DNA from: Candidatus Saccharimonadota bacterium
GTDB taxonomy: Bacteria; Patescibacteriota; Saccharimonadia; Saccharimonadales; UBA10212
Direction of reading: 5' to 3'
NCBI GenBank assembly: GCA_016187125.1
Contig: JACPKF010000001.1
Coordinates: 238,178 to 302,177, forward strand
Length of the DNA: 64,000 bases
Part shown: in pieces, positions 20,407 through 63,140 of the stretch
Layout of the letters: every line of letters begins with the position of its first letter
Numbering within the stretch: position 1 is the stretch's first letter
Translations under genes and position numbers: made by a program
Notes under the pieces: generated by a model
The model's database searches: none
Told to the model about the DNA's origin: nothing
The model's input: only the letters and a program-made list of their open reading frames with translations

Positions 20407-20527
20407 CCAATTTTGCAAAGTTCCGCATCGCTGCAGTACTTTGCAAAATTGAGAGGAGGAAGCGACCTGAGGCTGGAAATAAACAAGTTATACTTGTTTA
20501 TGGAAGCCGACACGTCGATTCCGACGT
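20407..20527 (+). promoter_or_regulatory. tRNA leader module copy B
   Basis: CCAATT, a perfect 12-bp hairpin (20409-20450), AATTGAGAGGAG, then exactly 69 nt to tRNA-Phe. TGTTAAAAT, an extended -10, lies at 20383-20391 upstream. Confidence 0.6.
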
Positions 20528-25242: not shown

Positions 25243-25456
25243 ATACTAACTTTACCATCTAGTCTTGGCAGCCTGCAGGTTTCGCTACCCAGGGCGACAC
25301 ACTTGAGTGTAGTACAAGGAAGCAATAAGAAACGAGCGAGTCGTATGAATAATACGGTGAGCGAGTTTCGCCAGCAGCTGACACAGTAATACACCAAGAG
25401 GCTGCCGGTGCTACCAGCTCTGCTGGTGGACAGGGCAGGCGGTGTGTTGTCTTGGG

Positions 25457-26189: not shown

Positions 26190-27425
26190 TTATATCAATT
26201 TTCGTACAAGTGCTGCCGATAAGACTTTATTCCCTGTGTCTGTAATTAATATGTCGTCCTCAATCCTTATGCCTATTCCCTCCTCCGGAATATAAATACC
26301 CGGTTCAACCGTCAAAACCATGCCGGCGGCCAGCGGTTGGTGCCAACCCCGGCCATCATGCACGTCCAGACCCAAAAAGTGCGAAACCGAATGTGGCCAA
26401 TACTGTCTGACATTCTTGGCATTATTTTTCTTGATCAACCCAAGAGACAGAAGTTGATCGCCCATGAATTTGTCTATTTTTGCCGTGTAGTCTTCTAGGA
26501 CTGCGCCCGGTTTTAAAAGACTTATGGCAAATTTCTGGACACTTAGAACTGCGTCAAAAACCTCTTGTTGCCTGACGGAAGGTGTGGCCAAAGCAATTGT
26601 TCGGGTAATATCACTGGCGTAGTGGCTGACTTCAGCGCCAGCGTCAATCAGTACAAGATCCTTACTCCTAAGTTTATGATTATTGGAGTTGTAGTGCAGT
26701 ATGCAAGCGTTTGGTCCGCTTGCCGTAATAGTCGGAAAAGCCGGCCCGTTGGCTCCTCTTCTGCGAAAGCTGGCATCGAGATCTGCAGCTATTTGATATT
26801 CCCAGTCAAACTTCTGGCGACGAGCTAGTACCTCTTTAAATGAATCGACGGTAATATCAACAGCTTTTTGCAAGGCAGCTAATTCCGGTAGCTGTTTAAT
26901 GATTCTCATATTAGCTAATTGCTGACGAAGATCTATGAAAGCTATCTTTTTATTGATTGTTTTTATCCGGCGCCTCAGCCGCGCGGGAGCCGGATTGGTG
27001 TGAAAGCCCATCTGCCTGACATATGGCGGCGGGGGCAGTATGGTGCCAGCCTTCTTGGTCTTTTTGAGTATGCTCGCTAAGTGCAGCCAGCCGTCTTTAT
27101 TGTCCATAACCTGATTGATACCAGAAGTCTGGCTAAGAGCCAGCTTGTCTATAGCTCCATCAAAGATCACTCTGATTTTATCTCTCGGCGGCACTATCAA
27201 AAACTCATCAGTGCCATTGATTACCAAAACAGTGTCCGGTTCATCAATGCCGGTGAGATACCAAAAATTACTATTTTGCTTGAAAGGAAAGGTATTGTCA
27301 GCGCTACTTTGCAGTAGCCCATTAGCCGCAATAACAATCAAATCGGTGCCGGCTTTGACTGGCAACCGCCGGCGGTTACCTCTAAAGAAATCTGCATTAA
27401 ATTCCATGGCTTCTACTATACACAC
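26190..27425 (-). CDS. Xaa-Pro aminopeptidase (M24B)
   Basis: DAGAE...SDITRT, HSVSHFLGLDVHD, EPGIY and IRIEDD metal-ligand motifs. The start is a GTG at 27425 or an ATG at 27407. Confidence 0.85.
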   Translation of the reverse strand: MCIVEAMEFNADFFRGNRRRLPVKAGTDLIVIAANGLLQSSADNTFPFKQNSNFWYLTGIDEPDTVLVINGTDEFLIVPPRDKIRVIFDGAIDKLALSQTSGINQVMDNKDGWLHLASILKKTKKAGTILPPPPYVRQMGFHTNPAPARLRRRIKTINKKIAFIDLRQQLANMRIIKQLPELAALQKAVDITVDSFKEVLARRQKFDWEYQIAADLDASFRRRGANGPAFPTITASGPNACILHYNSNNHKLRSKDLVLIDAGAEVSHYASDITRTIALATPSVRQQEVFDAVLSVQKFAISLLKPGAVLEDYTAKIDKFMGDQLLSLGLIKKNNAKNVRQYWPHSVSHFLGLDVHDGRGWHQPLAAGMVLTVEPGIYIPEEGIGIRIEDDILITDTGNKVLSAALVRKLI

Positions 27426-27578
27426 GTTTCGCGCTTAGCCATTGATAGCAGATTGCCCCTGAGCGAGCGAAAGCTTTCAATCCGTGGGAAGCATAACTGT
27501 AGTTATGGTGAATGAGGAGTGGAAGCTTGTAGCCACTCAGGGGTGATCTGAGGCGATGGAAAAGCGCGAAACGCGTGT
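27421..27578. repeat. ~158-nt imperfect palindrome (long hairpin) between pepP-like gene and uvrC
   Basis: Terminal arms GTTTCGCGCTT / AAGCGCGAAAC, inner paired blocks CCCCTGAG / CTCAGGGG and AAGCTT, and an apical hairpin CATAACTGTAGTTATG. Confidence 0.6.
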
Positions 27579-27595
27579 CTATAGCAAGCTAGGTC

Positions 27596-29218
27596 TTAGA
27601 TTTTCTTATAAGAATCCAGATAGCCGCGCAGCAGTTTGGCCTTATGAGTACCGATTGAAAGAGCAATACTAGCTTCGGATGTCTGAGTAATTTCTTTGAC
27701 TGAGCCAAAAGTCTTGATCAGTTTCTTGCGGGTTACCGGGCCAAAGCCGGGTATTTCTTCCAGCATACTGGCAGTTTGCCGGTGCCGGCGGAGACTGCTG
27801 TGATAACTAAGCGCAAAACGATGCGATTCGTCCCGAATCCGCTGCAATAGTTTCACAAGATGAGAATTTTGTGACAGTTTAATAACCTTAAAACTGTTGA
27901 CTTCGTTCGGTTTGCGAACGATGATTTCTTCAAAACGTTTGGCAAGCCCGATCATTGGAATGTGACTACGGCCTCCATCATCTCGGGCTTTTAGGGCCGC
28001 CGCCAGTTGCCCTTTGCCGCCATCAATAAGTACTAAATCCGGCAAACCCCACTTTTTTATATTCCGGTCGCTAAAGCGACGATGGACAGCCTCGAACATA
28101 TGAGCAAAATCATCGTTACCGGCAAGTCGCATTTTAAACTTACGGTAAGCGGCTTTATATGGAAGACCGCTGGCAAATACCACCATACTGGCAGTTGTAT
28201 CACTTCCCTGAATATGACTGACATCAAACCCTTCTATCCGCCTCAGCTTGCGTAGCGGTCTGGCCTGCTGCCTGGCCGAGCTAGGCATGCCGCCAGACCT
28301 TACAGCGGATTGCGGCGTTGCAGGCTGTGCTGCTCCCTCATCGTATTGTTCTCCATACGCCTCAGTCCGCTGCTCGCCTGCGCCTTGCACTCCATCTGCA
28401 TACGCAAGCTGAGGTTCATTTTCGTAAAGTCCAAGTAATCCGGCCAGTTCTATTAGTGCCTGATCACGACTGGCTGCCTGGATTTCATGATCACCGAACA
28501 AAACTTGGCGGCTGAGAGCTTGAAGCGAAAATAGTTGATTGCGCAGCTTAGCGGCTTTTTCGAACTGTTCGGCTCGAGCCGCCTGTTTCATATCTTTTTC
28601 TATCTTTTTCATCAGCGCCACCCGATTGCCACGTAAATACTGCATTAACTTTCGAAGGTTTGCTCGGTAGTCGGTTAAACTTGTCCGGCCGTCTTCTAGG
28701 CCCGGATCTAGACCCAAGTGATAGTGCAGGCTGGAACGTTTTTGACCTACCGGTTTAGAAACGGCGTACGGGAAGGCTCGACGCAGATAACGCAGGGCTT
28801 TTTTGAGCGCCAAACTGTTGATATACGGCCCGAAATAGTCAGCGTCATCATCCAAAGGATGGCGGATAAGACTGACAGTCGGGTAATCACTTTTATAATT
28901 AATCCTCGCATAACTAAGGCTTTTGTCATCGCGCAGTAAAATGTTATAACGAGGCAGGTAGCGCCGGACCAGTTCGGCTTCTAAAAACAGAGCATCAACT
29001 TCGGTTTCAACCGGTGTCCAGTCAACATCAGCAATCTCGGCGATTAACAAATCAGTTTTGGGATCGCGGTAGCGGCTGGACTGGAAGTACTGCCGTACGC
29101 GGTTGAGCAAATTGGCGGCTTTGCCAATATAAATAATTTCACCGCTGGCGCTTTTATGAAAATAAACCCCCGGAGAGCTTGGTAATTTCTTTAGTTTCTT
29201 TTCCAACTTCACATTCAT
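27596..29218 (-). CDS. uvrC: excinuclease ABC subunit C
   Basis: GIY-YIG N-terminus (GVYFHKSASGEIIYIGKAANLLNRV), UVR motif (QFEKAAKLRNQL), RIEGFDVSH endonuclease domain and a C-terminal HhH. Confidence 0.9.
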   Translation of the reverse strand: MNVKLEKKLKKLPSSPGVYFHKSASGEIIYIGKAANLLNRVRQYFQSSRYRDPKTDLLIAEIADVDWTPVETEVDALFLEAELVRRYLPRYNILLRDDKSLSYARINYKSDYPTVSLIRHPLDDDADYFGPYINSLALKKALRYLRRAFPYAVSKPVGQKRSSLHYHLGLDPGLEDGRTSLTDYRANLRKLMQYLRGNRVALMKKIEKDMKQAARAEQFEKAAKLRNQLFSLQALSRQVLFGDHEIQAASRDQALIELAGLLGLYENEPQLAYADGVQGAGEQRTEAYGEQYDEGAAQPATPQSAVRSGGMPSSARQQARPLRKLRRIEGFDVSHIQGSDTTASMVVFASGLPYKAAYRKFKMRLAGNDDFAHMFEAVHRRFSDRNIKKWGLPDLVLIDGGKGQLAAALKARDDGGRSHIPMIGLAKRFEEIIVRKPNEVNSFKVIKLSQNSHLVKLLQRIRDESHRFALSYHSSLRRHRQTASMLEEIPGFGPVTRKKLIKTFGSVKEITQTSEASIALSIGTHKAKLLRGYLDSYKKI

Positions 29219-29255
29219 ACTTCTATTTTAACCTTTGGCATACGTGATCGGAATT

Positions 29256-29289
29256 CCTACTAAAATCAGCGATCGCTGATTTTAGTAGG
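29256..29289. repeat. 34-nt perfect palindrome CCTACTAAAATCAGCGATCGCTGATTTTAGTAGG
   Basis: Read directly from the sequence. Lies 38 nt upstream of the uvrC start, in the uvrC/ABC-exporter divergent region. Confidence 0.9.
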
Positions 29290-29671
29290 GGAGGTCACAA
29301 TCACAAAAAGTTTGGACAGATTAGCTTAAGGTGTTATACTTCCTGAATTATTAATGGTTTGCTCTCTCTTCATCGGGAAGAGAGCCCGAGCGTCGGATTT
29401 ATTCCGCCCATTCGACAAGCTCAGGGCGGCCTGAGCGGCAGTCGAAGGCCGCACCCGGCGCGATAATCGGGGTCCCCATGAAATTTATTTCATGGGGTAT
29501 GGTGAGAAACCCGCGATGCGAGGTGTCTCATAAGGCGAAGCCGCACTAACAGGGAGAAAGGAGTAATCAAATGTGTGCATCATCAGTCACGAGCCATTTA
29601 AGGGTTGCTTCTTTTGCAGCCTGTTAGCTCTTGTCAAGTAAAAAGTTTAAACTAAAAATAATCAAGTTAAA

Positions 29672-29692
29672 GCGCAGCAGGAGGCTGCGCCC
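29672..29692 (+). promoter_or_regulatory. 7-bp GC hairpin presenting the SD (AGGAG) in its loop, 2 nt before the ATG
   Basis: GCGCAGC-AGGAG-GCTGCGC-CC-ATG, read directly from the sequence. Confidence 0.5.
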
Positions 29693-32915: not shown

Positions 32916-33005
32916 TTGAAGAGGTCCGTCCTTGCAAAAAGCAAAGAGATTTTATGCAAAATCACTAGATTCTACCTATCTTTTTGCAAGGACGGACCTC
33001 TTCAA
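32916..33005. terminator. 26-bp perfect inverted repeat with 38-nt spacer between dedA-like gene and uvrA
   Basis: TTGAAGAGGTCCGTCCTTGCAAAAAG ... CTTTTTGCAAGGACGGACCTCTTCAA. The right arm contains the uvrA stop codon. Confidence 0.6.
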
Positions 33006-35891: not shown

Positions 35892-35963
35892 CCCAGCACT
35901 AAAAAATCGAGTAATTTTATAAATAACCGTTTGTCCGGCTATTCTCGATTTTTAAGTGCTGGG
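35892..35963. repeat. 20-bp near-perfect inverted repeat with 32-nt spacer upstream of uvrA
   Basis: CCCAGCACTAAAAAATCGAG ... CTCGATTTTTAAGTGCTGGG, 35-105 nt upstream of the uvrA start. Confidence 0.7.
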
Positions 35964-39734: not shown

Positions 39735-42599
39735 TTATTTTTTCTTGCCACTGGCCGGTTTAGCGTTGGAACCACCACTGATGGGTTTCGTAAAGGCGGC
39801 TGATTTACTGGGAGTCGGGTTAAAAGCGTTGGGGGCGAATTGGACTATGGAAGGCTTAGGCGGAGCAACCGAAACTACTACCGGCGGTTTGGGTGTTGGT
39901 TTGGGAGCGGCAGCTACAACCGGTGGTTTAGGTGTTGGTTTGGGGGCAGCAGCCGCGACTGGTGGTTTAGGTTTGGGCGGAGGGACGGAGGTTGTTGCAA
40001 AGGGTTTGGGTGTTGGTTTGGGAGCGGCAGCTACAACCGGTGGTTTAGGTGTTGGCTTAGGAGCAGCAGTTGCTACTACTGGTAGTTTCTTGGGCGGCGC
40101 CACTGGAGTAGGACTACTCATAACTACTTTTTTAGGCGGAGCGACCGAAGCTACTACTGACTTAGGTTTGGGCGGTGCTCCGGGGACAGGACTACTCATG
40201 ATGGGCTTAGACGGGAAGATTGTTGCCCCTGGCGTAGGCACTCCGGGTACAGGACTACTCATAGACACTAAGGCCGGTTTGGGCGGTGCTCCGGGGACAG
40301 GACTACTCATGATGGGCTTAGTAGGTATCGGAGATACTGCCGGCGAACTGGCAAGACCTCTCTCAGGACTGTTAGAGAAGCCAAAGGATGATGTTGCTAC
40401 AGCTGCTGGGACTACTGTCTTAGGGGGGGTAGCTAGCGGTGCGGTCTGGGCAGCATTGATAGCTGCCGCTTCAAGGTCATCGAAAGAAACCTTGGGCTGA
40501 GGAGGGATAGTCGGAGCGGCTACCGGAGCTGCTGATGCCGGAGGGGTAGCTAGCGGTGCGGTCTGGGCAGCATTGATAGCTGCCGCTTCAAGGTCATCAT
40601 ACGAAGCCTTATTTGCCTTAGCTGTGGTGGTCGGGGGAGTTAGAGGTACAGAATTGTCCTTAGCGTCCATAGCAGCATGATGATCAAAGACTTTTTGGGC
40701 TGAAGATTCAAAAGCTGATCCCAGAGGTTTGACATTATTATTTAGTGAGGCATTACCTACATCATCTGGCAGAGGGGTAGCTGATCCTATCGGCGCAGTT
40801 TGATCAGGATTGCTGGCTGCCATTATAGCGTCATCTAAGGAGGGTCTAGGCAGAGGAGAAGCTGCCGGGGTTACTGACGCCGGAGGGATAGCTGATGTTG
40901 ATCCTGTTGGTATAGTCGGTGCATCATCTCCCAATGCAGCCGCGTGGTGCGCTTGTACTACTGGATTATTACTAATGGCAACATTTATCCTGGTTGCCGG
41001 AGTCGAGGCAGGCAGAGCCGTTGCCTTAGGTTCAGGCACTCCCGGAACAGAACTGGGTATTGCCGGAGCCTTTCGGATCGTGTAAGGTGTATGGCCTTCA
41101 ACTTGCTCAATTTTAGCGCCCGATGCCGTGGTAGTTATAGTTACACCAGGGCTAGGATGTTCAGTCTTAACAGGCTTAGCGCCACCAGTATAGGCCGGTG
41201 GATAGACAGGAGGTGCTGCTCCTGGAACAGGACTAGGCATGGTAGGTTGAGACGGTGTTACTACCGGAACAGAACTGCCCATAATGGGCTGGGGCGACAC
41301 TCCCGGAACAGGACTACTCATAGCTGGGGCTTGACTTGTCGTAGGAAAAGATAAAGATACGGGAACGCTACCAAAGTCCGTAGTAACAGGCGCTTTGCTA
41401 CTGGGAGGTGGGAAGTGGGCTGTGTCATTAGAGGCGATCGACGACTTAGAAGAAGATGCTACCAACGGATTGACAAGACCTCTTTCAGAAGTGCTGGGAG
41501 AACCAAAAGATGTTGCCGGCAGATTCACGGTGCCTCTGTCAAAAAGGCTATGACTATCAAGAGATGGAAAGTGGGCTGTGTCATTTGCGGCAACTAGGCT
41601 TGCCGAGGCTGTTGGGGTTTGTAAGGCTGATGGATCGCCATCGCCAGAGTCACCCCTGCCTTGACCATCTTGAACAACAAGATGCTCGCTCAATATACCG
41701 CTGCCGATAGCTTTATTAACTTGCGCTTGGTTTAGATGGGAAGTGTCCCACACTTCACCGTTTTTAATAAATGATGCGTAGCCGTCAGTAAAGATACGCT
41801 CTACTACTCCGGTTTTGGGGTCTTCAATGGTTTTAAGAATATTGTCCGTAGTGTGAGGTACCGGATGAGATTTAATCTGAAAATACTGACTAGCTGCTGC
41901 TTGGTTCCGGGGAGGCATCGCAGCCGCGGAAGCGGCTGCCGGCGCGACTGCTTTAGCTATATCTGGAGAAGTTTCGCCACCGACAACTCCAAGTGGTCTC
42001 GGCGTAACTTGATCGCCTCTTAGCCCGCCGCCAGCTGGCGGCTCTGTGCCTGGAGGTGTTTCGCCACTGCCGCCACCGAACGGGTTGGTACGAACAGGAA
42101 TGCCCCCGCCAGGTGCTGCTGGAGGGGTGGTCACATCTCTTGGCTTAACATCCGTTTGGGTGCCAGGTCCGTAAGGGGTCGGAGCACCCGTATCTAAGAC
42201 TTTGCCACGATCACCATATTTAGTCCATGAACCATCAGGTTTATAAACTGTTACTGAACCATCGGGATTTCTAGTAATTTTTTCGCCGCCGGGAGTTGTA
42301 TGTTCTTTCAACGGTGATGTATTAGCCGCTGCGGCTAGCGCATTGTTTGGTACACTTGCTGTTGGAGCCTCAGAACTATCCTGCGGATCAGTAGAATAAG
42401 AAGTAACTAAGCCGTTCTTGCTGTAAACGTAGCCTGTCTTTCCGTCTGGGGAAACGGTTGTGTATTGACCACCATCGTTTAGATTGAAGTAGCCGCCTTT
42501 TTTTACCCAGGTGTCGCCAGTCCAGCTCCACCCATCACCGGGGGGTTTCGATGGAATCTTATTACCCTCTTTCTTACGACCTAGGCCGAAAAGTGCCAT
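39735..42599 (-). CDS. 954-aa proline/alanine/serine-rich modular repeat protein, unknown function
   Basis: A long ORF with a good AAGGA-type RBS. The N-terminus has beta-hairpin-like repeats (GWSWTGDTWVKKGGYF, SPDGKTGYVYSKNG, NPDGSVTVYKPDGSW). The rest is PxP-rich with exact internal DNA repeats. Confidence 0.7.
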   Translation of the reverse strand: MALFGLGRKKEGNKIPSKPPGDGWSWTGDTWVKKGGYFNLNDGGQYTTVSPDGKTGYVYSKNGLVTSYSTDPQDSSEAPTASVPNNALAAAANTSPLKEHTTPGGEKITRNPDGSVTVYKPDGSWTKYGDRGKVLDTGAPTPYGPGTQTDVKPRDVTTPPAAPGGGIPVRTNPFGGGSGETPPGTEPPAGGGLRGDQVTPRPLGVVGGETSPDIAKAVAPAAASAAAMPPRNQAAASQYFQIKSHPVPHTTDNILKTIEDPKTGVVERIFTDGYASFIKNGEVWDTSHLNQAQVNKAIGSGILSEHLVVQDGQGRGDSGDGDPSALQTPTASASLVAANDTAHFPSLDSHSLFDRGTVNLPATSFGSPSTSERGLVNPLVASSSKSSIASNDTAHFPPPSSKAPVTTDFGSVPVSLSFPTTSQAPAMSSPVPGVSPQPIMGSSVPVVTPSQPTMPSPVPGAAPPVYPPAYTGGAKPVKTEHPSPGVTITTTASGAKIEQVEGHTPYTIRKAPAIPSSVPGVPEPKATALPASTPATRINVAISNNPVVQAHHAAALGDDAPTIPTGSTSAIPPASVTPAASPLPRPSLDDAIMAASNPDQTAPIGSATPLPDDVGNASLNNNVKPLGSAFESSAQKVFDHHAAMDAKDNSVPLTPPTTTAKANKASYDDLEAAAINAAQTAPLATPPASAAPVAAPTIPPQPKVSFDDLEAAAINAAQTAPLATPPKTVVPAAVATSSFGFSNSPERGLASSPAVSPIPTKPIMSSPVPGAPPKPALVSMSSPVPGVPTPGATIFPSKPIMSSPVPGAPPKPKSVVASVAPPKKVVMSSPTPVAPPKKLPVVATAAPKPTPKPPVVAAAPKPTPKPFATTSVPPPKPKPPVAAAAPKPTPKPPVVAAAPKPTPKPPVVVSVAPPKPSIVQFAPNAFNPTPSKSAAFTKPISGGSNAKPASGKKK

Positions 42600-42729: not shown

Positions 42730-42770
42730 CATCCGTTATTTACAAGGAGGCTCCTTGTAAATAACGGATG
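42730..42770. repeat. 41-nt hairpin (19-bp perfect stem, 3-nt loop) between obg and the Pro-rich gene
   Basis: CATCCGTTATTTACAAGGA-GGC-TCCTTGTAAATAACGGATG. Confidence 0.85.
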
Positions 42771-50357: not shown

Positions 50358-50389
50358 CACTTCTATGTTTCTTAAGAAACATAGAAGTG
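50358..50389. promoter_or_regulatory. 32-nt perfect palindrome, probable operator of the adjacent wHTH regulator
   Basis: CACTTCTATGTTTCTTAAGAAACATAGAAGTG, 30 nt upstream of the regulator ATG in the divergent region with the ftsA-like gene. A related core GTTCTTAAGAAC lies at 50667-50678. Confidence 0.6.
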
Positions 50390-60930: not shown

Positions 60931-61755
60931 TTACAGCCTTAATATTAAATATATGCCAGTTAGCCCAGCAAAAAACACTCCAACAGCCGAAAAAATAACT
61001 TGCGACAGGCTACGCATAATTGTGTGCCGGCTCAAGGGATTGCGGCCAATTGCAACCATGCCGCTGCGTACTCCCACCCAAACCAGCGTGAAGGACACTA
61101 TCATAGTTATAAGAAAGATCGCAAACACCGTGTAAATCCTAAGCAGCGATAGGCGCCGACCAGCTATATATTCGCTCAGGCGTTTAATTGGCTCAGGTAC
61201 AAGGCCGGCACTATTTATTAGCGGGTTTTTACCAGGTGCAATCTGGACTCGGATTTTATCGCTTATGGTTGTGCTGGAGGTCTTATTAGCCGTGGAATTA
61301 TTGCCGTCAAAACCTTGCAAGGCCCGGCCTAGTACATACGAGTCGTTACTGGTCGCCTTAGCAGCCACGCCGTCAGTCGAAGATATTGATAAATAATTAC
61401 CTGAGCTGATGGAGCCCTTCTCGGCAGTCACTAGCACAGAGTAAATGCCGCCGTTGGCAACTAGTACCTGCTGGCCTCGATTTTGAATACTAACTGAGGC
61501 CTCAGACGGACTAATAACCACACCATATATTCGATCTGGTGTGCCAGCCGGTGCCAGCTCGACGCTGCTGGAGTCATCGCGGCTTATGGCTACCACGACC
61601 CCGAGCTGAAGATCATCTTTAGCTTTAAAACTACGAGGTATATTATCGGCTCCGGCGTAGGCCGTACCTAAAAAAGTCGCCAGCAATAATGCCCCAACGC
61701 CAAATTTAACTGCCAGCCAGCTTCTTTTTGATAACGGCCTAAACACCAGTGTCAT
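60931..61755 (-). CDS. secreted/anchored protein with a C-terminal two-helix membrane hairpin, unknown function
   Basis: 274 aa. Signal-like N-terminus, a ~170-aa external domain, and a C-terminal TM-loop(GRNPLSR)-TM. It occupies the position where atpB/atpE are expected. Confidence 0.55.
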   Translation of the reverse strand: MTLVFRPLSKRSWLAVKFGVGALLLATFLGTAYAGADNIPRSFKAKDDLQLGVVVAISRDDSSSVELAPAGTPDRIYGVVISPSEASVSIQNRGQQVLVANGGIYSVLVTAEKGSISSGNYLSISSTDGVAAKATSNDSYVLGRALQGFDGNNSTANKTSSTTISDKIRVQIAPGKNPLINSAGLVPEPIKRLSEYIAGRRLSLLRIYTVFAIFLITMIVSFTLVWVGVRSGMVAIGRNPLSRHTIMRSLSQVIFSAVGVFFAGLTGIYLILRL

Positions 61756-61837
61756 ACTTCGGTACTAAGTATATCGCTTTTGTTTACCCAGTGGTAGGTT
61801 GAAGGTTAGCGACCATCAAAAACTTAGCTGCTTACTA

Positions 61838-62006
61838 AGAGCTAATTAACATCTCCCTGTTATAGGCAAAATTGAAGCAGGGTCCATGATTTTCAATCTG
61901 TTTTCTCGTGAGGAAGCATACCTCAAGTGGTACGCTGACGAGGGAAAAACAGATTGAAAGTGGGCCACCTTCGGTTTTGGCCGATAGGGAGATGTTAATT
62001 AGCTCT
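61838..62006. mobile_element. 169-bp MITE-like nested inverted-repeat element
   Basis: 21-bp perfect terminal inverted repeats AGAGCTAATTAACATCTCCCT / AGGGAGATGTTAATTAGCTCT, with an inner near-perfect hairpin at 61892-61958. The right arm supplies the last codons and stop of the desulfurase gene. Confidence 0.5.
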
Positions 62007-63140
62007 AAGATGGCGTAAGATATCAATTACTTGGTAAATATTAGCCTGGGTCGTAGCCCGGCCAAAGCTTAAACGCAAGGTGGCTTTGGCAAGCCCGTCA
62101 CTAAGGCCGATAGCTTTTAAAACGTGAGATGGTACAACGCTAGCTGCGCTGCAAGCGCTGCCGGATGCCGCCTGGATACCATGTTCATCAAGCTCCATCA
62201 CTAGACGCTCGTTATCTTGGCCGGGCAGCGTTACGGATACAATATGCGGCGCCGAGTTTTTGACTGGACCGTTTAAGTGAGCCTCTGGCAATTTACTTTT
62301 GAGCTCTGACAAAAACAAGTACCTCAGAGCGTTTATTCGCCGAGCTTCTGGAACTCTTTGTTTTTGAGCCAGTCCCAGTGCCACGGCTAAACCTACGGCC
62401 GCGGCAAGATTTTCGGTACCACTGCGCAGGCCCATTTCCTGTCCGCCTCCCAAGATTAGAGGCTGCAATTTTAGACCAGTTTTAACGTATAGTAGACCGC
62501 TACTTCTGGGGCCATAAATTTTCCCGCCGTTGATCGTCATTAAATCGACTCCCAGGCGGCTAACATGCAGATCCAAGAAATTGCCGGCTTGGGCGGCATC
62601 GCTATGTAAATATAGCGGCAGTTTATTACTATTTCTTTGGCGTTTTTTTCGAATGTCTTTAACCGCGCTAGCTATTTGCCTAAGTGGTTGGACAGTTCCC
62701 AATTCGTTATTGACCATGCCGATACTTACTAAAACCGTCTTGTTACTGATGAGCTCGACTAAACTTTCCGGTCTTACCAAACCAGTGGCTGTAACTGGAA
62801 TTTGTTTAGTTCGAAAAAGTCTGGCTGGAGCCAGCACCGACTTGTGCTCAATAGCGCTGGCAAGCAGTTCAGCTTCTGGAAATTGGCGCATAACACCTTG
62901 GATAGCCAGATTATTGGACTCAGTCGCGCCGCTGGTAAATATTATTTCTGTTGGTCGGGCCCCCAGACAATCGGCAATACTGGCACGAGCCTTTTCAAGT
63001 TCTAAGCGTGCATCTCTGCCAGCTAGATACAGCGCTGAGGGGTTATAAAATTGTTCCTTTAAGTAAGATTCCATAGCTTTCATTACTCTCGGATCCAACG
63101 GAGTGGCTGCAGCATAGTCGAGATAGATATTCTTTTTCAT
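61995..63140 (-). CDS. cysteine desulfurase (NifS/IscS-like, class V aminotransferase)
   Basis: 381 aa. HSDAAQ, a GGKIYGP PLP-lysine region and an active-site loop SGSACSA. Confidence 0.85.
   Translation of the reverse strand: MKKNIYLDYAAATPLDPRVMKAMESYLKEQFYNPSALYLAGRDARLELEKARASIADCLGARPTEIIFTSGATESNNLAIQGVMRQFPEAELLASAIEHKSVLAPARLFRTKQIPVTATGLVRPESLVELISNKTVLVSIGMVNNELGTVQPLRQIASAVKDIRKKRQRNSNKLPLYLHSDAAQAGNFLDLHVSRLGVDLMTINGGKIYGPRSSGLLYVKTGLKLQPLILGGGQEMGLRSGTENLAAAVGLAVALGLAQKQRVPEARRINALRYLFLSELKSKLPEAHLNGPVKNSAPHIVSVTLPGQDNERLVMELDEHGIQAASGSACSAASVVPSHVLKAIGLSDGLAKATLRLSFGRATTQANIYQVIDILRHLRAN

Follow-up and report, generated by a model that had tools for sequence, protein, structure and literature searches.

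The 167-bp palindromic element that lies between a cysteine desulfurase gene and the ATP synthase locus of this Candidatus Saccharimonadota genome is, with a probability of about 90%, a type II MITE, a non-autonomous derivative of an IS1031-like insertion sequence (IS) of the IS5 family. The whole stretch of DNA that was analysed, 64 kb in length, is referred to below as the window. Prokaryotic MITEs are defined as elements shorter than 500 bp that carry terminal repeats of 4-30 bp, are flanked by direct repeats and give transcripts that form stable hairpins (PMC10969869). They are mobilised in trans by related ISs, and those of type II resemble an IS in their terminal repeats only (PMC10969869). 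The window element is 167 bp long and lacks a transposase gene. Its terminal repeats are perfect over 20 bp, and 96% complementary over 24 nt when the flanks are included; it is bordered by the direct repeat TAA/TAA (TTA/TTA in a second copy, L009, and around a full-length IS, L010); and it shares its ends, over 20-24 nt of identity, with two complete, putatively autonomous ISs (L010 and L011). As the similarity to these ISs is confined to the ends, we assign the element to type II. Together, the shared IS ends, the target-site duplication, the second copy and the absence of the element from relatives support the proposal of the initial annotation that a MITE-like mobile element donated the stop codon of the upstream gene. 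What is new here is this particular element, in bacteria that have been little studied; the kind, a MITE derived from an IS5-family IS, is already known.

The features of the locus are collected in Table 1. The 21-nt termini, AGAGCTAATTAACATCTCCCT (61838-61858) and its reverse complement (61986-62006), are perfectly complementary, and with the flanks they extend to 24 nt of which 23 pair (61835-61858 and 61986-62009). Within the element proper, which starts with GAGC and ends with GCTC, the repeats are 20 bp long and perfect. The 21-nt terminus has no other match in the window even when 3 mismatches are allowed, with a chance expectation of 0. Further inside, an inverted repeat has 14-nt arms without a mismatch (61891-61904 and 61946-61959). 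The predicted RNA fold of positions 61830-62015 (186 nt) is a single nested rod with a free energy of -98.2 kcal/mol on the plus strand, compared with a shuffle mean of -45.9 kcal/mol (z = -12.7, matched by 0 of 200 shuffles), and of -80.6 kcal/mol on the minus strand (z = -11.0). The 175-nt element forms 68 pairs, of which 7 are G-U pairs when the plus strand is folded and 1 when the minus strand is folded. The perfect 21-bp termini, their extension to 23/24, an inner hairpin placed at 61892-61958, the nearly continuous rod and an asymmetry of U-G wobbles had all been described in the initial annotation, and each is confirmed for the window copy. The G+C content of the MITE is 44.3%, that of the window as a whole 47.2%.

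Table 1. Positions of the MITE, its neighbouring features and related hairpin elements; coordinates are those of the window unless a contig is named.
Feature	Position	Strand	Remarks
MITE proper, without transposase	61839-62005 (167 bp)	.	GAGCTAATTAAC...GTTAATTAGCTC; bounds from comparison with L009, L010 and L011
Left copy of target-site duplication, TAA	61836-61838	.	Sequence read directly; C outside
Right copy of target-site duplication, TAA	62006-62008	.	Sequence read directly; followed by G at 62009
Left terminal inverted repeat	61839-61861	+	Matches IS right end best
Right terminal inverted repeat	61986-62005	-	Matches IS left end best; holds last codons and stop of the desulfurase
Inner hairpin, perfect 14-nt arms	61891-61959	.	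Arms also kept in the L009 copy
Apical part of inner hairpin, GGAAGC-hairpin-GCTGACGAG	61912-61938		
Cysteine desulfurase gene, 381 aa	61995-63140	-	3' end remodelled by insertion; PF00266; NCBI name
TAA stop of cysteine desulfurase	61995-61997	-	Donated by MITE
274-aa membrane-protein gene	60931-61755	-	First gene before the ATP synthase cluster
Promoter-like block CAAAAGCGATATACTTAGTACCGAAGT, 27 nt	61756-61782	-	Upstream of the 274-aa gene; invariant in window, L006, L007 and L008
Small hairpin CTTAG-TAAGCAG-CTAAG, then TTTTT	61818-61839	-	Directly 3' of MITE on mRNA strand; sequence reading
E25-type copy	25283-25445	+	Intergenic
E25-type copy, ~178 nt	28252-28429	-	In frame in uvrC (ORF 27596-29218)
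E25-type copy	L008 1392-1560	+	In the spacer orthologous to the MITE-bearing one of the window
E25-type partial copy	L017 5692-5786	-	63 nt upstream of tmRNA gene
Apical motif sites	61912-61938, 27487-27511, 25318-25360; L009 4295-4321; L008 1421-1464		

That such a structure arose as a palindrome by chance, or was created during assembly, has a likelihood close to nil. No terminus matches are expected by chance, none of the shuffled sequences folds as well, and a homologous copy is present in another genome (L009). The same 240-nt spacer is found in 7 independently assembled Logan contigs, and therefore is not an assembly artefact. A 63-aa ORF that overlaps the element on the minus strand (61835-62026) was treated as spurious; it has no Pfam match and its start lies inside the desulfurase gene.

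A metagenome scan with GAGCTAATTAACATCTCYCT returned three short contigs, L010, L011 and L012. The first two contain complete ISs, of 881 bp (L010, 126-1006) and 862 bp (L011, 18-879), and the third contains the right end of an IS. Over 20-24 nt, the MITE termini GAGCTAATTAACATCTCCCTG match each end of the L010 and L011 ISs without a difference. When the L010 IS was compared with the window using blastn-short, the left side of the element gave matches of 29 nt at 96.6% identity (61834-61862) and 23 nt at 100% (61838-61860), and the right terminal repeat matched the left end of the IS over 24 nt at 100%. Nothing else in the ISs resembles the MITE. Each IS contains two ORFs: the first matches DUF4096 (PF13340, about 5e-27 to 7e-27) and the second DDE_Tnp_1 / DDE_Tnp_1_2 (PF01609, about 2e-18 to 3e-18, and PF13586). 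The two jointly match the NCBIfam model NF033580, 'IS5 family transposase', at profile positions 1-123 and 141-258, with scores of 106.9 and 92.8 bits; as the gene is divided in two, each half falls below the whole-protein cut-off of 110 bits. The ORFs would be joined by a -1 frame change at GAAAAAGGGGGCC (A5G5), predicted from the sequence, and the resulting protein of 267 aa can be aligned with thousands of single-ORF transposases of 265-280 aa over 94-99% of its length, and end to end with relatives of 271 aa. The best identity of the joined transposase is 61% among the proteins searched, and 55% or less to annotated plasmid copies. One of these relatives, on a Nostoc plasmid (55% identical transposase, annotated as 'IS5 family transposase'), has terminal repeats that begin with GAG (GAGGGTGTTTATAAA) and flanks TAA/TAA. 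The window itself contains no autonomous IS, and tblastn with the IS transposase found no transposase in its 64 kb.

Members of the IS1031 subgroup of the IS5 family are about 857 bp long, encode orfA and orfB joined by a -1 frameshift, insert at TNA and exclusively generate a 3-bp direct repeat (PMC12016507). By size, predicted frameshift and TNA duplication, rather than by phylogeny, the putative parent IS fits this subgroup; database labels of the related transposases go no further than 'IS5 family transposase'. The flanking bases of the copies are consistent with the assignment. The 3 bases on either side are TAA and TAA for the window MITE, TTA and TTA for the L009 MITE, and TTA and TTA for the L010 IS; the L011 IS, with TTA on the left (15-17) and TAA on the right (880-882), is the exception among the four complete copies. 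In the three copies with identical flanks the middle base is identical on both sides and not complementary, which fits a 3-bp duplication and not a part of the inverted repeat. The mismatch in L011 could be explained by recombination between copies or by a point change. The next outer bases are C and G at 5 of 5 sequenced junctions, giving the target C-TWA-G, and this frame also flanks L009, L010 and L012. The target-site duplications that the initial annotation had suggested looking for are therefore present, and the search for further copies of the termini that it had also suggested led both to the ends of these complete IS5-family ISs and to a second copy of the element at an unrelated locus.

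This second copy was the single locus returned when one genome per species was scanned with the 19-nt terminus. It is complete, 167 bp long (L009, 4222-4388), and lies in a Candidatus Saccharimonadia MAG between holA-like and dCTP-deaminase-like genes, a context unrelated to that of the window. Over 175 aligned positions the two copies are identical at 150 (86%), with no indels. The L009 copy has a G+C content of 44.3%, equal to that of the window copy, whereas its host DNA has 56.3%. This brings the MITE copies found so far to two, in two genomes, with one inside the 64-kb window. One reading frame is open through both copies, but a protein search for further copies through miscalled ORFs gave no matches. 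Four matches to the terminus in viral contigs, all from one phage family, were judged to be chance matches, having neither CTWAG nor a hairpin, and scans of viral contigs for the inner-hairpin pattern and for the E25 core pattern (described below) gave no matches. On the minus strand of L009 (4389-4480), two reading frames enter the MITE junction. One is hydrophobic (..ILLQILHVVYLVFGIIGLFVMLFF) and has its stop exactly at the target-site TAA; the other ends ..IFLRAN-stop inside the element, with the same R-A-N-stop tail as in the window. As CTWAG targets include TAA or TAG, insertions beside stop codons may be favoured.

Comparison of the two copies also bears on whether the hairpin is, or has become, a structured small-RNA gene on the plus strand, antisense to both neighbours, with IS-like ends that are incidental or secondary. 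Both copies are indeed antisense to their flanking genes, and in both the plus strand of the 175-nt element folds better than the minus strand (-94.0 versus -78.3 kcal/mol in the window and -93.7 versus -86.5 kcal/mol in L009). All 12 substitutions in paired positions keep the pairing (2 are compensatory and 8 exchange G-C or A-U for G-U), compared with 13 substitutions in 37 unpaired positions, and every one-sided substitution in the predicted pairs preserves the plus-strand pair, although the pair list was itself predicted on the plus strand and is hence biased towards plus-strand pairs. The excess of G-U pairs on the plus strand of the window copy (7:1) is not repeated in L009 (3:3), and with only two copies a common orientation amounts to a coin toss. 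No sigma-70-like promoter site was found at the element on either strand. At the gathering threshold, Rfam matched only tRNAs across the window, and at E values up to 10 the best match to the hairpin itself scored at most 15.5 bits against a threshold of 55 bits. A match to a known RNA family, which the initial annotation had named as evidence against a mobile element, is thus not observed, and its suggestion of a plus-strand transcript, drawn from the wobble asymmetry, is weak given the 3:3 ratio in L009 and the lack of a sigma-70-type site. An RNA gene would moreover leave unaccounted for both the duplications and the fact that the two ends are identical to those of an IS that carries a transposase. 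We consider this reading very unlikely.

The orthologous locus was taken from three relatives, L006, L007 and L008, all of which keep the gene order TatD, desulfurase, 274-aa gene, ATP synthase. Their spacers are 110 nt (L006, 71% aa identity), 47 nt (L007, 65% aa identity) and 224 nt (L008, 74% aa identity) long, and none contains the element. L006 and L007 have short hairpins at this position, and L008 has a different, unrelated hairpin of 190 nt. Since the element is missing from the spacers of all three relatives, the window element represents an insertion; conservation of its position in all relatives, which the initial annotation had considered as a counter-indication, is not found. The spacer between the desulfurase and the 274-aa gene is, to judge from these sequences, a recurrent landing place. 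No near-identical empty site was found: all seven same-strain contigs are filled, and every contig with an identical desulfurase or an identical 274-aa protein carries the element.

Insertion has altered the end of the desulfurase gene. The product of the ORF at 61995-63140 on the minus strand, a class-V aminotransferase / cysteine desulfurase with the C-terminus ..RHLRAN, matches PF00266 (6e-60) over positions 1-370 of the 371 in the profile. As had been annotated, its last codons and its TAA lie in the right arm of the element: AGA-GCT-AAT-TAA (R-A-N-stop) occupies positions 62006-61995. When the element and one TAA are removed in silico, the coding strand reads ..CAT CTT AGT AAG CAG CTA AGT TTT TGA, and the reconstructed pre-insertion tail is ..H-L-S-K-Q-L-S-F-stop. 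Comparison with orthologues places the insertion point one codon past the last orthologue-aligned position (L17 after the conserved GR motif), that is, directly after the last conserved residue. Beyond the GR motif the orthologues have tails of 18-24 residues that are not conserved, and such lengths are normal. Considering that the Pfam domain is already complete before the insertion junction and that the tail is unconserved, we conclude that the insertion swapped a dispensable 6-residue tail (SKQLSF) for R-A-N and a new stop. An 'LSK' match between the reconstructed tail and the orthologue P0002 was rejected, being out of register when the sequences are aligned from the conserved GR motif.

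The target CTTAG is the 5' arm of the small CTTAG-TAAGCAG-CTAAG hairpin, and the insertion regenerated this hairpin just 3' of the element. With its TTTTT, the small hairpin may have been the original weak terminator, as far as the sequence suggests; a terminator scan found it too weak for a call. The promoter-like block CAAAAGCGATATACTTAGTACCGAAGT remains intact despite the insertion. An alternative is that the rod is primarily a terminator or 3'-end stabiliser of the desulfurase mRNA, kept by selection. The rod does separate a stop codon from the conserved promoter-like block of the downstream gene, shorter hairpins are present at this position in relatives, long perfect hairpins are numerous at gene ends in this genome (32916-33005 and 42730-42770, for example), and MITE transcripts have been discussed as possible terminators (PMC10969869). 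At the base of the rod, however, the G+C-rich stem followed by a U-tract that characterises intrinsic (Rho-independent) terminators is not found, and a terminator scan gave one weak internal match, no more than in shuffled sequences. The element, being absent from relatives, is not the ancestral terminator, and the surviving small hairpin with its TTTTT just downstream could serve instead. The initial annotation's 'bidirectional terminator' does not fit, as both neighbouring genes are on the minus strand, in tandem rather than convergent, and the rod base has no U-tract. Terminator function is also compatible with a MITE origin; it would then be an exaptation, and the two readings would not compete. 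As the primary role of the rod we regard it as unlikely.

Returning to the type II MITE, we propose the following course of events. The element retains only the terminal repeats of about 20-23 bp that the transposase would recognise, the remainder being self-complementary filler. A DDE transposase (DUF4096 plus DDE_Tnp_1) supplied by a full-length IS, located elsewhere or formerly present, would bind both ends, excise the element and move it by cut-and-paste into C-TAA-G, duplicating TAA. Since the insertion, the desulfurase frame continues into the right repeat, encodes R-A-N and ends at the TAA of the element. Co-transcription at the 3' end of the desulfurase mRNA would produce a long double-stranded RNA rod, in its minus-strand version (predicted at -78 to -81 kcal/mol), which could stabilise the mRNA 3' end, be a substrate of RNase III or hinder transcription from reading on into the ATP synthase locus. 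The rod itself would probably result from the palindromic construction of the element.

The MITE is accompanied by other hairpin elements in this genome. An 'E25-type' family, distinct from the MITE, consists of two-branched elements of about 165-180 nt (Table 1), whose copies are linked by nhmmer with E values of 5e-11 and 9e-8. A consensus of 46 pairs is common to the three full copies, and 18 of these pairs show compensatory double changes. Rfam searches with the E25-type and other long hairpins gave no matches. The copy inside uvrC adds about 58 residues (YENEPQLAYADGVQGAGEQ...RPLRKLR) that none of the seven closest homologues of UvrC contains, including one with 74% identity; homologues match the window UvrC as two stretches, residues 1-264 and 325-540. 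The minus strand of this region (28230-28450) folds at -96.7 kcal/mol, and the insert resembles the in-frame palindromic elements of Rickettsia (PMC10969869). A third long hairpin (27417-27581, 165 nt; -99.3 kcal/mol on the plus and -85.1 kcal/mol on the minus strand), with 26-nt arms at 85%, takes up the whole spacer between uvrC and the gene that follows, stopping about 8 nt short of a possible ATG. For this hairpin, neither a clear target-site duplication nor a further copy was found. On the other side of uvrC, the 474-nt divergent intergenic region upstream of the gene (29219-29692, plus strand) is highly structured, with a fold of -177.5 kcal/mol (z = -6.3), and matched no Rfam family at the gathering threshold. 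Elsewhere in the window, the ORF 39735-42599 on the minus strand contains a direct repeat of about 55 nt (GGGGTAGCTAGCGGTGCGGTCTGGGCAGCATTGATAGCTGCCGCTTCAAGGTCATC; 40380-40640), and the coding region has a strong GC skew (+0.18).

At the apex of the hairpin elements we observed the motif GGAAGC-hairpin-G(G/C)TGA, with tandem G-A pairs and always on the more stable strand; the window contains 7 matches compared with 1.9 expected. Hammerhead, k-turn, SRP and 6S structures were considered by eye for this motif and rejected because parts are missing (there is no stem II, and the bulge length is inconsistent), the motif lies on the wrong side of the loop and Rfam is silent. Homology between the MITE core and the other hairpin families is not supported: the tests gave weak local alignments, equalled by 7 of 300 and 17 of 300 shuffles, and against a covariance model of the E25-type hairpin the MITE scored only 1.8 bits and the I4 hairpin 3.9 bits. 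That the MITE is one of several hairpin families of about 165-190 nt that recurrently colonise the same spacers and coding sequence, and that share an apical GGAAGC-hairpin-G(G/C)UGA (sheared G-A) selected on a single strand, is in our estimation quite unlikely. If it were true, the apical module could bind a host or transposase-accessory factor as RNA or ssDNA, and the rod would be more than filler.

Many long hairpins also occur in intergenic spacers near gene ends (32916-33005, 42730-42770, 35892-35963, 29256-29289, 50358-50389 and 20408-20451). They are mostly perfect or near-perfect, with stems of 16-26 bp that are 90-100% complementary, and none of the examined ones is followed by a T-run. 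One of them (32916-33005) fills the entire interval between a pair of convergent genes, overlapping a stop codon. Such hairpins may be the usual terminators of this lineage.

The MITE explains an odd gene end, a transposon terminus having supplied the final three codons and the stop of a housekeeping enzyme, and together with its IS it offers a concrete pair for masking when genomes of Saccharibacteria and other CPR bacteria are annotated. It also indicates that mobile DNA still enters these reduced episymbiont genomes of about 1 Mb, the L009 copy lying 12 GC points below its host. The several hairpin repeat families, including the in-frame uvrC insertion, may prove of wider interest than this single element. 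In the top-ranked CPR/Saccharibacteria literature the phrase 'miniature inverted-repeat' was not found, which is absence of evidence only.

Among known systems, the partner IS most closely recalls the IS1031 subgroup (ISLrh, for example, at 857 bp; PMC12016507): it has a length of 862-881 bp, a DDE transposase encoded by orfA and orfB with a predicted -1 frameshift between them, terminal repeats that start with GAG, and insertion at TNA with a 3-bp duplication, and the MITE has the same ends and duplication. The target of the partner IS appears more specific, being C-TWA-G at 5 of 5 ends. Tourist-type MITEs of the eukaryotic PIF/Harbinger group (mPing and mPIF) are similarly non-autonomous and mobilised in trans. 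PIF prefers the target CWCTTAGWG, which would resemble the CTWAG found here. Tourist-type MITEs have a 3-bp TAA/TTA duplication (PMC2836001), and the PIF/Harbinger transposase superfamily has been placed in one tree with the IS5 family (PMC12730594). These eukaryotic elements differ, however, in requiring a second protein, ORF1, in being larger (430 bp for mPing) and in lacking a near-perfect hairpin over their whole length.

Also similar are the Correia elements of Neisseria and the ERIC elements, which are 100-170 bp long, have terminal inverted repeats, lie at gene ends and are co-transcribed to give long RNA hairpins; for the present element, by comparison, the matching IS has been identified directly. 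Correia elements duplicate TA. RNA from Correia elements is cut by RNase III, and ERIC elements at 3' ends alter mRNA levels (PMC10969869). QMITE2 of Coxiella burnetii is also alike in build, its core of 113-145 bp being framed by terminal repeats of 23-29 bp and its transcript forming a hairpin of about -113 kcal/mol (PMC10969869), but it has direct repeats of 7-9 bp, another parent element and another host.
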